Program-made: the position numbers and the translations under genes
Shown: piece after piece, positions 2,584 through 63,216 of the stretch
Numbering within the stretch: the first letter of the stretch is position 1
Layout of the letters: every line of letters begins with the position of its first letter
Source of the DNA: a virus
Lineage: Duplodnaviria; Heunggongvirae; Uroviricota; Caudoviricetes
Virus record (IMG/VR): IMGVR_UViG_2740892441_000001
Reading direction: 5' to 3' (one strand)
Length of the DNA: 64,000 nt
Notes under the pieces: model-generated
Databases searched by the model: none
Seen by the model: only the letters and a program-made list of their open reading frames with translations
What the model was told of the DNA's origin: nothing

Positions 2584-2976
2584 TTACCACCAGGCGCAGA
2601 ACGTCAGTCTGTTATTGTGAAAGTCGTAATTATTAATCAGCTCTTCTACAAGTGCTTTCAACTCCCCCACGTCACGCCAGTAATCTTCGTCATAATCCAT
2701 GCTGCCAAAGTAAAAACCTCCAGTCGGCTCGAACTCATCCTGAGTAGGCAGAAGGGCTTCGCAATTACTCTCGTTGAGACGAATCAGAGTAGCCTTTAGA
2801 GCGCAAAGATCATTCTTTGTAATTTCTAAAAATTTAAAACTATCAACTTTGCCTACGTTCCGATTCACCCACCCAACAAGCGCATTAAACTTATAAAAAT
2901 AGCCTACTTCCTTTCTGGCTGCTTCGTTATTCAGATCGTTTTTTGGCTGCGTCTCGATATAGATATCAAGTCCCAT
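2584..2976 (-). CDS. hypothetical protein
   Basis: 130 aa ORF with AAGGAAA RBS. Confidence 0.55.
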   Translation of the reverse strand: MGLDIYIETQPKNDLNNEAARKEVGYFYKFNALVGWVNRNVGKVDSFKFLEITKNDLCALKATLIRLNESNCEALLPTQDEFEPTGGFYFGSMDYDEDYWRDVGELKALVEELINNYDFHNNRLTFCAWW

Positions 2977-3100
2977 GATGGTTTCCTTATTAAGTATTAA
3001 GTTGCTTCAGTGAAAGCATTTTCACAAATCAGATAAGGCAGAAAACAAATTATTATCGGGCATAAGAAAATGGCGCGGTTTACGCGCCATTTAAAGAGGA

Positions 3101-3622: not shown

Positions 3623-3934
3623 TCAGGCTATTGCCATCACTGATGCTCTCTGAATCTCTTGCTGGGCCACGCGGTTAACTTCCATCAAAGCCAGTTCGAG
3701 CTGATGTTCCGGCCACATTCTTTGAAACGCCATCCAGCCTTTTCCACGCTGGCGGCGAACATTCATTACATAACGAGTAAAGGTGTTTTTATCGAAAGAC
3801 ACCGCTGTTTCACGGAACAGACGAATAGAGGTTCCATTGGCAACGATGTCCAGCAAAGTTAATTGAGCAACCAGCGCAGGCTTCTCTTTTCTCTTCTGGT
3901 CTTTGTCCAGACCAAGAACCAATGATTTTTTCAT
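3623..3934 (-). CDS. hypothetical protein
   Basis: Start refined to ATG with GGAG RBS (103 aa); promoter motif upstream. Confidence 0.45.
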   Translation of the reverse strand: MKKSLVLGLDKDQKRKEKPALVAQLTLLDIVANGTSIRLFRETAVSFDKNTFTRYVMNVRRQRGKGWMAFQRMWPEHQLELALMEVNRVAQQEIQRASVMAIA

Positions 3935-3945
3935 CACAACTCCGT

Positions 3946-3986
3946 AAACAACTTGTTTTCTCAATGGCGTAAATAATACCAGTAAG
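3946..3986 (-). promoter_or_regulatory. conserved early-promoter-like motif
   Basis: AAACAACTTGTTTTCTCAATGGCGTAAATAATACC. Confidence 0.35.
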
Positions 3987-4087
3987 AAAACGGCTACAAA
4001 GCATATTGATCAGGTGCATGAGCGATATGCAGGTTCTTCCCTGCGGCTATAGAGAAATTAAGCCAGCAATGCTGGCTTTGGTTGGGG

Positions 4088-21582: not shown

Positions 21583-22176
21583 TTACTGCTTGTTATAAAC
21601 AAAACCAATATCTTTCTTGTGAGGCATATCTGCTGCGGAAAAAGCTGCGATCTTCGCGAGTCGATCACATATTTCATTTTCACGATGCCCGGCGTGACCT
21701 TTAACCCACTTCCAGCGAACATTATGTCGACTTGCGGCCTCATCCAGACGCTTCCACAGATCAACATTCTTTACCGGTTTTTTGTCAGAAGTCATCCATC
21801 CATTGCGTTTCCAGAATTTCATCCACTGTGTCATGCCGTTTTTCAGATACTGGCTATCAGAGTGCATAATAACGTTGCATGGATATTTCAAACGCTCCAG
21901 CCCGATAAGTGCCCCCATCATCTCCATGCGGTTATTGGTGGTGCTATGAAAACCATCTGAGAACTCGCGTTCCTCACCACGATACTGGAGAACTATACCG
22001 TAACCGCCCGGGCCACCCGGATTTTTAAGGCAAGAGCCATCACTGAAGATTTTCACGGTTTTAAGCTGGGGATTGAACTCTACGACAGGCGTTGTGGGAT
22101 TGGTGCGGGGAGAATTTTTGTTTTTGTCTTTTTTGCGAGTTTTTGCTTGCGACCGGGCTGGTGTCTTCGACGTCAT
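21583..22176 (-). CDS. rnhA: ribonuclease HI
   Basis: [10 protein letters not shown]...[11 protein letters not shown]...HSDSQY...[12 protein letters not shown] matches RNase HI; start set at ATG after AGGAG RBS. Confidence 0.75.
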
Positions 22177-22756
22177 ATAAACTCCTGAATCAAGCGCCGC
22201 GCCGTTTTTTCCTCGCGCGTGCGCACACACGTGCGTGTAATAATTATTAAAATAAACAAATTACTTCCCAGTACAGGTTTTTATAAACCTGAACTGAACG
22301 AACGAAGTGAGTGAAGTTCACCTCGAACGAAGTGAGAGGTTGTCTTTTCAGGTAATACTCTCCCAGGGAGGTGAGTATAAAATTCCTCACCAACCTGGTC
22401 GTTTCATAACCTGAAAAGCTATGGTCTAAGTCTACTGCCAGCTTAGACTTGGGAAGTTATGGATGACAGCACCCCAGAACCGAGATCTTCCCACACTTTA
22501 TGAAGGGGAGTACTGGATTCAACCTCTCGAAACACCCCAGACTCGACAATCATAAAGTGACCCTTGTCTCCGCTCACTTTGGTTCCCCCTTCCCCGACAC
22601 CTAAACGGCACCGGTTCTACGCTGGTAGTGAGCTTTTTTAAACCTGACGCCAGTGACGCTTACCCCCACCCATCAGGTCGAGTCTCCAGTCTACGACTGG
22701 AAACTATCAGATCTTAGCACTTACAATTCATCTTATGAATAGTTTGTACTTATCTA

Positions 22757-22987
22757 TCATTTCGATTGATTATTTTCTCGACCATGTAGTTGAACATTCA
22801 AGGCAAACACCTCGTTAATCAACTCACCTAAAAGCTGTTCAACAAGTTCGCGATGCTCCCCAAGATGCAAGCACTTAATTGCCCATTCGTACAAGTTGAA
22901 AGCCTGCTCGCGATCTTTCATCATTTCACGGGCCTGGGCCAGAAAATCGCTCTCTACGAGCGCAACGACATTAGTCGGGTATGACAT
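22757..22987 (-). CDS. hypothetical small protein
   Basis: Start refined to ATG with AAGGAAA RBS (76 aa). Confidence 0.4.
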   Translation of the reverse strand: MSYPTNVVALVESDFLAQAREMMKDREQAFNLYEWAIKCLHLGEHRELVEQLLGELINEVFALNVQLHGRENNQSK

Positions 22988-23172
22988 GTTAGTTTCCTTA
23001 AAGTGATTCATAAAATCGATTTTAAAGCGTCTGGGAAGGGGTTCTAGTGGATTCTGTAGTGATGTTCAGGTCTGGAGTCTCTGATACAAAACAGCCTGCT
23101 TCCGTATATTAATAATTAATATGTAGTTATTTATATATACAGAAGCAGGCTAATTACAGACGCCAGAACAAA

Positions 23173-23766
23173 CTAAGCAGCCTTCTTTGATGGTCTTTTT
23201 TTCCTGATCACATTCGCAGGATCATACCCTCCCAGACTTTTCATGACGTCCAAAGGGATCTTGCTTATAGAGTGCCCAGCGTCCTGACAGAATCCTCGAA
23301 AAACAACGAGCATACTGCCACCTGGGTTGATGTTTACTTCTACCTGACCCAGATTGACGTCAGGCTCGACAAACGCTACGCGGCCACCAGACAGAATAAT
23401 CGTCTCATTCGCACACTCTGTTGCACGCTCATACCACTTTGTATCTAGGGATTGAGGAATTAGCATCACTGTTGTAACTCCGCGAGCCTGCTCACGTATA
23501 GCCGCATCAATCCAGGGGGAGATTTTGGAGTAGGGTGGATTGAGGAAGGCAATTGTACCTGGCTGTCCCCATTCAGATTTCAAAGCATCACGCTCAACGC
23601 CTATGAAATTAGGCAGCTTTGCATTGTCCTTGTTGCAGGCAACGTCAACATCAAATGTCACTCCAAGATAACGTTGAATGGCAGAAAACAGCCAGTCAGG
23701 TGTTCTCCAGAGGTCACGAAGAGAGTTGTCGCGCTTTCGCTGTTTGATTTTTTCGGCTGCAATCAT
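23173..23766 (-). CDS. phage Dam-family N6-adenine DNA methyltransferase
   Basis: LWRTPDWLF...FDVDVA...AFLNPPYS signature of phage-type Dam MTases. Confidence 0.7.
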   Translation of the reverse strand: MIAAEKIKQRKRDNSLRDLWRTPDWLFSAIQRYLGVTFDVDVACNKDNAKLPNFIGVERDALKSEWGQPGTIAFLNPPYSKISPWIDAAIREQARGVTTVMLIPQSLDTKWYERATECANETIILSGGRVAFVEPDVNLGQVEVNINPGGSMLVVFRGFCQDAGHSISKIPLDVMKSLGGYDPANVIRKKRPSKKAA

Positions 23767-51945: not shown

Positions 51946-52241
51946 GTAAAGGTGTCTGGCATCGTCTGGTTCGTTAACGTTTACTAAACCAATGGTGACA
52001 AAAATTAGTTATCTTTGAAAAATAAAGGTTGCATGAAAAGAAGGGGTATGCGTTAATAGCATCGTTGGTTTGCAATACAGACCTTATGTAAGCAGTTTTA
52101 GTAAAGCAGTCTCAGTTCAGTGTTATCTTCTGATTTCCCTTCTTCGTGAGTCTCCTCCTTAAGTGCCTAAGTAAGTCCCAATCTATACAGATCAAATTCT
52201 CGCCGCACTATGTGGCTCACAAAATTAAGAAGGTAATATCT

Positions 52242-52457
52242 ATGTCTAATAAAATGACTGGTTTAGTAAAATGGTTTAACTCTGATAAAGGCTTTGGCTT
52301 TATTTCTCCTGCTGATGGCAGTAAAGATGTTTTTGTACATTTTTCGGCAATTCAGAGTAATAATTTCCGCACTTTGGAAGAAGGCCAGCAGGTCGAATTC
52401 TCTATCGAGAATGGGGCTAAAGGCCCAGCAGCAGCAAATGTCGTTGCTCTAAGTTGA
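52242..52457 (+). CDS. cspA: cold-shock protein, CspA family
   Basis: [38 protein letters not shown]...[10 protein letters not shown] matches CspA-family proteins; long ORF-free leader upstream. Confidence 0.8.
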
Positions 52458-52733
52458 TTCAACGCTGATGATCCTCATTTCTACAATAACGAAGACGGTG
52501 TAAGCCTGAGTGGATAGATTTGTAGGATTGTACAAGTTGAATAAATTAGCATGGTAAGGCCATGCTAATTAAATCGACACAACGGCCAGTTTATTCCATA
52601 AAAGTGAATTGCCCATTGTGGCGAAATGCGGGGTTGCCGCATGAATAGTCAAAGGCAGAAGCTAACTGCCGGCATGGCAAAACAAAGTGCGTAAGAGGAG
52701 TGACTTCCTCAACAAGCGTCATAATTCTTTATA

Positions 52734-62968: not shown

Positions 62969-63055
62969 TGGCGGAGAGTAATGGAATCGAACCATCATCG
63001 CTTGCGCAATGGGACGGTTTTCAAGACCGCTTGAGCACCATGCTCTCTACTCTCC
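62969..63055 (-). tRNA. tRNA-Ser(TGA)
   Basis: Hand-folded: acceptor GGAGAGT/ACTCTCC, anticodon loop CTTGAAA, long variable arm, T-loop TTCGATT, encoded CCA; 87 nt. Confidence 0.7.
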
Positions 63056-63063
63056 AATTGTGT

Positions 63064-63139
63064 TGGTGCCGGTTAACGGATTCGAACCGCTGACATCCTG
63101 CTTACAAGGCAGGTGCTCTACCAACTGAGCTAAACCGGC
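63064..63139 (-). tRNA. tRNA-Thr(TGT)
   Basis: Hand-folded: acceptor GCCGGTT/AACCGGC, D-arm GCTC-AGTTGGTA-GAGC, anticodon loop CTTGTAA, T-loop TTCGAAT, encoded CCA; 76 nt. Confidence 0.8.
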
Positions 63140-63141
63140 AT

Positions 63142-63216
63142 TGGCGATGGTGGGTGGATTCGAACCACCGACCAGTTGGTTAACAGCCAACTGCTCTACC
63201 GCTGAGCTACACCATC
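63142..63216 (-). tRNA. tRNA-Asn(GTT)
   Basis: Hand-folded: acceptor GATGGTG/CACCATC, anticodon loop CTGTTAA, T-arm GGTGG-TTCGAAT-CCACC, encoded CCA; 75 nt. Confidence 0.8.

Follow-up and report, generated by a model that had tools for sequence, protein, structure and literature searches.

The 64,000-nucleotide stretch of viral DNA analysed here (IMG/VR record IMGVR_UViG_2740892441_000001; hereafter the window) carries, ahead of its RNase HI gene (rnhA), a region that is very probably a stand-alone, promoter-driven gene for a structured non-coding RNA (ncRNA) of about 450 nucleotides (nt), which stops short of rnhA and is produced in the lysogenic or plasmid state. The whole predicted RNA, of some 450–460 nt, occupies positions 22245–22705 of the minus strand, where sharp conservation edges, the top conservation of the window, a supported structure and a published transcript signal are found together. 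The region had been singled out from the sequence alone as an interval of about 520 base pairs (bp) free of open reading frames (ORFs), at 22231–22756, and it had been suggested to be a regulatory RNA, an antisense immunity RNA as in P1-type phages, or a partition or recombination site. In its broad sense, the regulatory RNA of this original prediction is supported by a conserved promoter, a fold backed by covariation and transcript signal published for lysogens. The interval itself stands with a slight extension of the functional unit: its promoter reaches up to 22739, and a conserved alternating tract, perhaps part of the unit, lies at 22214–22239.

From the matches of the region and its flanks, the window is a SSU5/pHCM2-type phage-plasmid from E. 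coli. Region and flanks are 96–99% identical to the Escherichia phages CMS-2020a, PhiR41_1 and Cyrano, and 86–91% identical to Salmonella phage SSU5 and several Klebsiella phages, and the element itself is 100% identical in the E. coli plasmid NZ_AP017612.1.

Conservation and distribution of the element

When seven relatives were aligned over 6 kb, positions 22300–22600 showed 93–99% identity, whereas the flanking genes showed 70–85%, and the high-identity relatives span five genera (Escherichia, Salmonella, Klebsiella, Enterobacter and Cronobacter). Across 61 distinct relatives, a near-invariant block with sharp edges runs from 22262 to about 22682, and the segment 22289–22343, which contains both copies of a 13-nt direct repeat, is identical in all of them. 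In a comparison with SSU5 and a Klebsiella phage, no 200-bp stretch of the 64 kb is more conserved than positions 22301–22500, whose identity is at least 96.5%, whereas the runner-up reaches 90% and the median is 75%; the other strongly conserved stretches that we checked (about 17.1–18.3 kb and 53.5–56.3 kb) lie inside long ORFs. Comparison with relatives, one of the checks suggested for the region, found that both its sequence and its structure are conserved.

A small protein, either the 44-amino-acid (aa) "hypothetical protein" CYRAN_81 of phage Cyrano (22443–22577 of the window, minus strand) or the product of another micro-ORF, is hardly credible as the function of the region. The Cyrano annotators called this ORF, and it has been listed among the expressed "morons" of that phage, but we judge it not to be a gene: it is broken by 1–3-nt insertions or deletions, which leave it frameshifted or truncated, in at least five lineages (L008, L028, L039, the whole Klebsiella group, L073 and L074), and no ORF of at least 25 aa is common to all lineages. 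The description of the region as ORF-free holds, in that only ORFs of 30–48 aa are present and none of them is conserved. Furthermore, third codon positions show no relaxation of conservation, and no real gene in the window matches the region in nucleotide conservation.

The element was found in 687 plasmids of PLSDB (from Klebsiella, Escherichia, Enterobacter, Salmonella, Citrobacter, Cronobacter and others), all of phage-plasmid size and none of them small. It is also present in 232 of 5426 complete E. coli genomes (about 4%), where all copies are full-length, 232 being on plasmids and 2 on chromosomes, with no partial matches. RefSeq/PGAP annotates nothing at the element. Among SSU5-like IMG/VR loci with upstream sequence, it occurs in all except two variants with a 12-kb deletion. 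In these two contigs (L065 and L071, of 19.7 and 38 kb), a position equivalent to about 34018 is fused straight to rnhA at about 22109, and the roughly 12 kb that are lost comprise the RNA gene together with the nrd, thymidylate synthase, dihydrofolate reductase (DHFR) and methylase genes; the two variants may be defective elements or knock-outs that arose naturally.

Around the IMG/VR RNase H neighbours at 38–49% identity, the element was absent by blastn and nhmmer. The route to distant homologues through the 76-aa protein encoded upstream of the element led exclusively to relatives at least 79% identical, that is, to the same clade (the IMG/VR relatives of this protein are SSU5-like without exception), and a degenerate pattern of the core, run across 185,579 species genomes, matched two Kluyvera contigs only. 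As far as present data go, the RNA seems to be limited to one tight clade of enterobacterial phage-plasmids.

Predicted secondary structure

The two strands of the region both fold considerably better than shuffled sequence does, with z = −5.5 and −4.2. The minus-strand consensus fold, built with RNAalifold on 16 diverse sequences, has 137 pairs in 18 helices, and 98.8% of its cells form standard pairs. Nine pairs have changed on both sides, versus a mean of 4.5 in shuffles, of which none out of 500 reached nine, and the covariation score is 0.083, versus at most 0.027 after a shift of the partners by one to three columns. The compensated pairs fall in five helices. Variation concentrates in apical loops and peripheral hairpins, as would be expected if the RNA is folded.

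The predicted RNA opens with a 5'-terminal hairpin (22681–22705, minus strand, as are all the domains that follow), which starts 3–4 nt past the predicted transcription start and folds in eight of the eight lineages tested, each time with a different sequence (arms UCCAGU/ACUGGA, CCGGA/UCCGG, GCUGGCAGA/UCUGCCAGC and GAUUUCGA/UCGAAAUC, according to the lineage). Domain I (22641–22679) is a 15-bp hairpin with the apical loop G-N-R-A-G (variants GUAAG, GAUAG, GAAAG and GGUAG) and three compensated pairs (22642/78, 22643/77 and 22647/73). We also considered Domain I as a lambda boxB-like element and rejected it, since its loop does not fit G-N-R-(N)-A. An A-run separates this hairpin from Domain II (22572–22633), in which a GCUCACU/AGUGAGC stem closes a branched part with a G-rich segment, GGGGAAGGGGG. 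Its covarying pair, 22574/22631, occurs as U-A, as C-G and, between the two, as U.G, a pair that can form only on the minus strand.

Domain III (22334–22570) is a multi-branch core of four hairpins (22494–22559, 22450–22493, 22424–22448 and 22344–22418), closed by GAGA/UCUC and GGU/ACC, with compensation at 22496/22557, 22425/47 and 22426/46. The GGTGAG (22370–22375)/CTCACC (22386–22391) hairpin that had been pointed out in the region is found in its place, nested in CCAGG/CCTGG and in a 13-bp outer stem (22344–22356/22406–22418); the stems of this 22344–22418 hairpin are invariant and its apical loop (22376–22385) is variable. The last stem-loop, hairpin V (22268–22297), has a variable loop and an upper stem in which U-A is replaced by G-C at two pairs, with a compensated pair at 22278/87.

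Promoter, strand and transcript

Upstream of the conserved block, in the stretch that begins after the stop codon of the 76-aa ORF, an alignment in minus-strand orientation revealed a −35 hexamer (TTCATA, 22734–22739, minus strand), which keeps the same position and a 17-nt spacer in every lineage amid variable DNA, and an extended −10 element (TGcTAAGAT, 22711–22719, minus strand), of which TGnTA(A/G)(A/G)AT is kept in most lineages. The −35 hexamer varies over the lineages (TTCATA, TTTAAA, TTCAAA, TTTACG and TTTACT), and in the Klebsiella group the TAGAAT hexamer is retained and the upstream TG is missing (it reads TTG). The promoter takes the form TTCATA-17-TGcTAAGAT in the window, TTTAAA-17-TGaTAAAAT in SSU5, TTTACG-17-TAGAAT in Klebsiella and TTTACT-17-TGcTAAAAT in the relative L074. 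The only promoter-like site that a pattern scanner gave in 700 bp of SSU5 and of L074 was this one, TG preceding the −10. Transcription is predicted to start near 22705. No promoter-like site on the opposite strand pointing into the element was found in the window, SSU5 or L074. A plus-strand promoter seen by eye at 22236–22244 was discarded, as it is not conserved and was not called by the scanner.

Three lineages need U.G pairs to form the 5' hairpin, which on the plus strand would be C.A mismatches. Among the 122 pairs that are most often Watson-Crick, 16 have variants that keep pairing on the minus strand only, versus 4 on the plus strand only, and for the pairs predicted on both strands 38 cells favour the minus strand, versus 9 the plus strand. 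Because of the conserved minus-strand promoter and of this bias in wobble pairs, the functional strand appears to be the minus strand, as for the neighbouring genes.

Transcription of the locus can be read from the published RNA-seq data on LF82/Cyrano lysogens (PMC9928086). CYRAN_81, which lies inside the element, has 113 and 121 normalised reads and its neighbours are low (10 and 9 for CYRAN_80, 6 and 11 for rnhA; PMC9928086), which is a signal about 12-fold over both neighbours (Table 1 and S1 of that paper). Over five conditions, CYRAN_81 ranges from log2 6.8 to 10.35, following the putative repressor CYRAN_45, and it is listed as an expressed "moron", among 13 Cyrano "morons" (PMC9928086); the same paper displays stranded coverage profiles. 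Since the element is high and both neighbours are low, a discrete RNA that does not extend into either neighbour appears to be made in lysogens. Another "moron", CYRAN_40 (39021–39356 of L091, Cyrano), lies over three tRNA genes that are encoded on the opposite strand and was also called expressed. Probably, at least two Cyrano "morons", CYRAN_40 and CYRAN_81, are RNA genes and not proteins.

Direct repeats and the 3' end

The 13-nt direct repeat noticed in the region is present where it was claimed to be: CGAACGAAGTGAG occurs exactly twice on the plus strand (22299–22311 and 22324–22336) and has no other copy in the window, even allowing one mismatch, and 100 shuffles gave a mean of 0.13 matches, with none reaching two. 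The palindrome reported between the copies (GTGAAGTTCAC, 22311–22321) is there as well, although as a near-palindrome and not a perfect one (GTGAA/TTCAC about a central G).

The two repeats (CUCACUUCGUUCG on the RNA) and the middle segment between them (22299–22336, minus strand) are part of the invariant block. In the predicted fold, the downstream repeat is the 3' arm of hairpin IV (22329–22299), paired with the middle segment (CGAGGUGA/UCACUUCG), and the upstream repeat gives CUC to the helix closing Domain III. Covariation is silent on the repeat helices, because 22289–22343 does not vary among 52 distinct relatives. The middle segment could pair alternatively with the upstream repeat. In addition, an ACUUC motif is present three times and is pairable with the invariant GAAGU of the tail, and alternative pairings near the 3' end are possible.

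It is very improbable that the repeats constitute a DNA-level site (iterons, partition or recombination) bound at the two 13-bp copies, with transcription being incidental. Two exact repeats spaced by 25 bp, about 2.4 helical turns, in a 55-bp invariant block would suit such a site, and the records H61, H72 and H79 begin or end within about 300 bp, probably by arbitrary linearisation of circular assemblies. However, there are two copies only, neither the rest of the window nor the 250 kb of related sequence searched holds another, and no near-copies of CGAACGAAGTGAG were seen in SSU5 (100 kb), Cyrano (first 50 kb) or a Klebsiella phage (50 kb), which weighs against iterons. Moreover, conservation extends over 420 bp, beyond one site, a conserved promoter feeds the region, and compensatory changes and strand-specific wobble pairs indicate selection on RNA pairing. 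With no par, rep or recombinase gene adjoining and with the repeats lying within RNA helices, the partition or recombination site considered for the region does not hold.

The presumed 3' end, or terminator, consists of the invariant GGGAAGUAA and a U-rich tract (22245–22267, minus strand), which is U-rich in five of six lineages; for L074 the scanner reports something like a terminator at this place, ACUUCC...GGGAAGU with AAGUUCUUUU after it. Between the 3' end of the RNA and rnhA, there is a perfect alternating pyrimidine-purine tract of 26 nt (CA/CG/TG, 22214–22239), which is prone to Z-DNA; a conserved GAGG and a run of 5–8 A come after it. It is the longest alternating run in the 64 kb, the next one having 15 nt, and a run of 16–29 nt, varying in sequence and length, is present in 62 of 62 aligned sequences (61 relatives and the window).

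Comparison with known RNAs

None of the 4227 models of Rfam 15 matched the element at gathering scores in a scan of the whole window, and a cmscan search of 22100–23200 with E up to 10 gave 13 weak chance matches, microRNA-like, none of which was C4. The Rfam/Infernal scan that had been advised for the region thus yielded no family, and the element is therefore not, by family, a C4/CI, RNA I, CopA-type, 6S, CsrB, RNase P RNA, GOLLD, ROOL, OLE, HEARO or raiA RNA. An ARAGORN scan for tRNA and tmRNA and a tandem-repeat scan returned nothing. In the literature that could be searched, we found no description of a ncRNA at this locus, and five sequence strings that were searched matched only an unrelated primer.

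The large RNAs GOLLD, ROOL, OLE, raiA and HEARO resemble the RNA described here in being longer than 400 nt and multi-domain, in combining conserved junctions with variable peripheral hairpins, and in their location on mobile or phage DNA. The present RNA differs from them in that it matches no Rfam model, is found in one enterobacterial clade, has lower diversity and has a much less supported tertiary architecture. The 6S and CsrB RNAs are abundant and stable and bind proteins in trans, which is the mode proposed below; however, on inspection we saw neither a mimic of an open promoter nor an array of GGA loops in the element, and neither model matches it. The RNA would be a new family within the lysogeny-expressed phage ncRNAs, unusual in its size and its extreme conservation.

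Genomic context and alternative roles

The locus sits within a long series of minus-strand genes for DNA metabolism, which reads, 5' to 3', nrdAB, thymidylate synthase, DHFR, 3'-5' exonuclease, adenine methylase, the 76-aa ORF, the RNA element, RNase HI and more genes. The 76-aa ORF (22757–22987, minus strand; PHROG 5343) precedes the RNA gene in every annotated relative examined, and the downstream neighbour (21583–22179, minus strand; Pfam RNase_H, E = 2.6e-44) is called rnhA in relatives. These flanking genes had been described as convergent, which is incorrect, as they are in tandem on the minus strand. RNase H was the only functional clue to come from Pfam and PHROG searches with the neighbouring proteins.

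In Salmonella pCFSAN006211 and Enterobacter p3804_3, rnhA has been swapped for other cargo and the RNA gene is intact, and therefore the RNA does not depend on rnhA in cis. The cargo is an IS110 transposase and a hypothetical gene in one of these plasmids, and betT and a DUF2254 gene in the other. The cargo junction is shared and equals position ~22190 of the window, just past the A-run (L007 ~2900–3013; L168 ~3900–4013), and this lineage retains the RNA gene and the AT-rich spacer, along with the alternating tract in a shortened form. A Citrobacter plasmid has the same boundaries as the cargo lineage, as seen from match boundaries alone. These observations point to a cargo-insertion hotspot immediately downstream of the RNA unit.

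The RNA could be a cis-acting, self-terminating leader of the P4 CI/N15 CA/P1 c4 type, in which the repeats and the middle segment would set a terminator before the rnhA module, with read-through in the lytic state. P4 immunity follows a seqA/seqB/seqC logic, which is matched here by the middle segment CGAGGUGA, pairable with UCACUUCG of either repeat. As seems to be the case for our element, the P4 CI, N15 CA and P1/P7 c4 RNAs are encoded by temperate phages (N15 and P1 being phage-plasmids), are transcribed in lysogens from a constitutive promoter heading a lytic or anti-immunity operon, and have repeats complementary to an internal segment, and their transcription halts before the first downstream gene. 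In line with a leader, the RNA is abundant and rnhA is at background in lysogens, the terminator-like stem of L074 uses the invariant GGGAAGU right before the U-tract, and SSU5 and pHCM2 have a Rha/antirepressor-family gene three genes downstream of the RNA element.

Nevertheless, we consider a leader unlikely. The processed immunity RNAs have ~70–80 nt (about 77 nt in the P1 type), whereas our RNA, with ~450 nt and five domains, is six times longer and conserved throughout, and no C4 model matches it. Immunity determinants normally diverge, whereas this RNA is near-identical over five genera and is not immunity-specific. The antirepressor gene is present in some lineages only, being absent from those of E. 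coli, Klebsiella and Cronobacter, and the RNA is kept where unrelated cargo has replaced rnhA. No complementarity to the rnhA translation start region was seen, by inspection or by comparison of 11-mers, and complementarity to the rest of the window was not significant (10 shared 11-mers found, 14 expected); a duplexfold scan of start regions was discarded, since long loops inflate its energies. The P1-type antisense immunity RNA of the original prediction therefore fails as a family assignment, given its size, the C4 result at E up to 10 and the lack of a complementary target in the searched phage-plasmid sequence. As an analogy it is possible: the inter-repeat segment pairs with either repeat, and the operon below includes an antirepressor-family gene in SSU5 and pHCM2.

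A further alternative, which we regard as distinctly improbable, is that the RNA is the pre-primer of an RNA-primed origin of the ColE1 RNA II/R-loop type, from which the neighbouring RNase H would make the primer for lytic or plasmid replication. In that case the RNA would remain base-paired with its DNA template close to the downstream AT-rich and alternating tract. The element lies directly upstream of an RNase HI gene in a block of DNA-replication genes, which recalls the link of ColE1 to RNase H; its 5' half is G-rich, with a GC skew of +0.22 and eight G-clusters; and the order of promoter, long structured RNA, AT-rich stretch, Z-DNA-prone tract and A-run would suit an origin, as would near-invariance under overlapping RNA and DNA constraints. 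There is also a precedent, as extrachromosomal mycobacterial prophages were reported to have ncRNA-based origins (PMC7157519). Both ColE1 RNA II and these origins of cluster A mycobacteriophages (PMC7157519) share with our element a long, structured, promoter-driven ncRNA on an extrachromosomal replicon in its maintained state.

However, a separate RepA/iteron replicon (IncFIB-type) is located elsewhere on the SSU5-type elements, no RNA I-like partner was found, with no antisense promoter on the opposite strand in the window, SSU5 or L074, and there is no similarity to ColE1 or the cluster A origins in sequence or model. The window has no GC-skew switch marking an origin at the element, which is never found on small plasmids. 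In the published counts, the RNA behaves as a stable species at a repressor-like level, and lineages without an adjoining rnhA persist, although the host RNase HI could substitute.

A proposed folded RNA acting in trans

On balance, we lean towards the explanation that this stand-alone lysogeny ncRNA acts in trans as a folded molecule. Its transcription would start at the sigma-70 promoter with an extended −10 (−35 at 22739–22734 and −10 at 22719–22711), and the transcript would begin with a protective 5' hairpin, fold into five domains (Domain I, a long hairpin whose loop is GNRA-like; the branched, G-rich Domain II; the Domain III core with its four hairpins; hairpin IV, which contains a repeat; and the terminal hairpin V) and end at the U-rich tract, about 70 nt ahead of the rnhA start codon. 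It would be expressed in lysogens near the level of the putative repressor, with the lytic genes on either side silent, and the 13-nt repeats would be segments of the RNA rather than protein-binding iterons. In the plasmid-prophage state, the folded RNA would bind in trans a conserved partner, either a host or a core phage protein or complex, and its 3' module may also block transcription into rnhA.

We prefer a folded RNA acting in trans over an antisense RNA because loops as well as stems are near-invariant over five genera and the searched sequence contains no target. Binding of a partner in trans is favoured because antisense immunity determinants normally diversify, and because the RNA gene persists without rnhA and the RNA level follows that of the repressor. 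We put this partner-binding mode forward tentatively, at rather less than an even chance. More doubtful is that the RNA represents a new large class working as a ribonucleoprotein or decoy on a machine conserved in the Enterobacteriaceae (RNA polymerase, a nuclease, or a replication or defence factor), and thereby holds the plasmid-prophage state or protects the element.

Several points weigh against the proposal of a folded lysogeny RNA acting in trans. Action in trans and a protein partner are purely inferred, and overlapping constraints on DNA and RNA, as at an origin, could also yield near-invariance. The relatives differ by 1–15% only, so covariation rests on few events, and most helices, including the repeat hairpin IV, never vary across them. 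Both ends of the RNA are predictions: the promoter of the window itself scores 8 out of 12, under the cut-off of the scanner, and the U-tract, weak in the Klebsiella lineage, lies 7–9 nt from hairpin V and does not make a textbook terminator. The target search covered part of the phage-plasmid sequence only. Finally, the published gene counts may be unstranded, since CYRAN_40, which is antisense to tRNA genes, was called expressed, and the strand assignment consequently rests on the promoter and the wobble pairs.

Other features of the window

The phage RNase HI (21583–22230) has a Lys/Pro/Thr-rich N-terminal extension of about 40 aa that is weakly conserved between lineages, with 50–63% nucleotide identity among them over the extension region at 22100–22200. 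The start codon of rnhA is disputed among annotators, who give proteins of 198, 215 or 254 aa. On the other side of the RNA gene, a long AT-rich inverted repeat (AGCCTGCTTC...GAAGCAGGCT, 23066–23172) separates the 76-aa ORF from the methylase gene; it is the source of the weak microRNA-like Rfam matches and is probably a terminator between genes.

Farther away, the Rfam cspA thermoregulator is matched over its full length at 52064–52481 on the plus strand (189.7 bits), and thus the phage-plasmid carries a cold-shock-protein gene with a long regulatory 5' untranslated region. A row of three tRNA genes lies at 62972–63216 on the minus strand, the third being a weak match (32.7 bits) that spans 84 nt; the tRNA cluster of Cyrano includes tRNA-Ser.

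Biological significance

SSU5/pHCM2-type phage-plasmids are common in clinical Enterobacteriaceae, and some of them bear resistance genes. The most conserved segment of these phage-plasmids is an unannotated gene, very probably for an RNA, that is active in the dormant state, which corrects the annotation of CYRAN_81 as a "hypothetical protein" and "moron". As a DNA marker for this group of phage-plasmids, the element is also compact and highly specific. Few large structured RNAs are known from bacteria, and every new class of them has led to new biology. If the doubtful ribonucleoprotein or decoy role were true, this would be the first large structured RNA with a role in lysogeny in phage-plasmids, and if lysogeny, copy number, replication or defence is under the control of the RNA, it would give a means of influencing how stable these elements are and how they spread.

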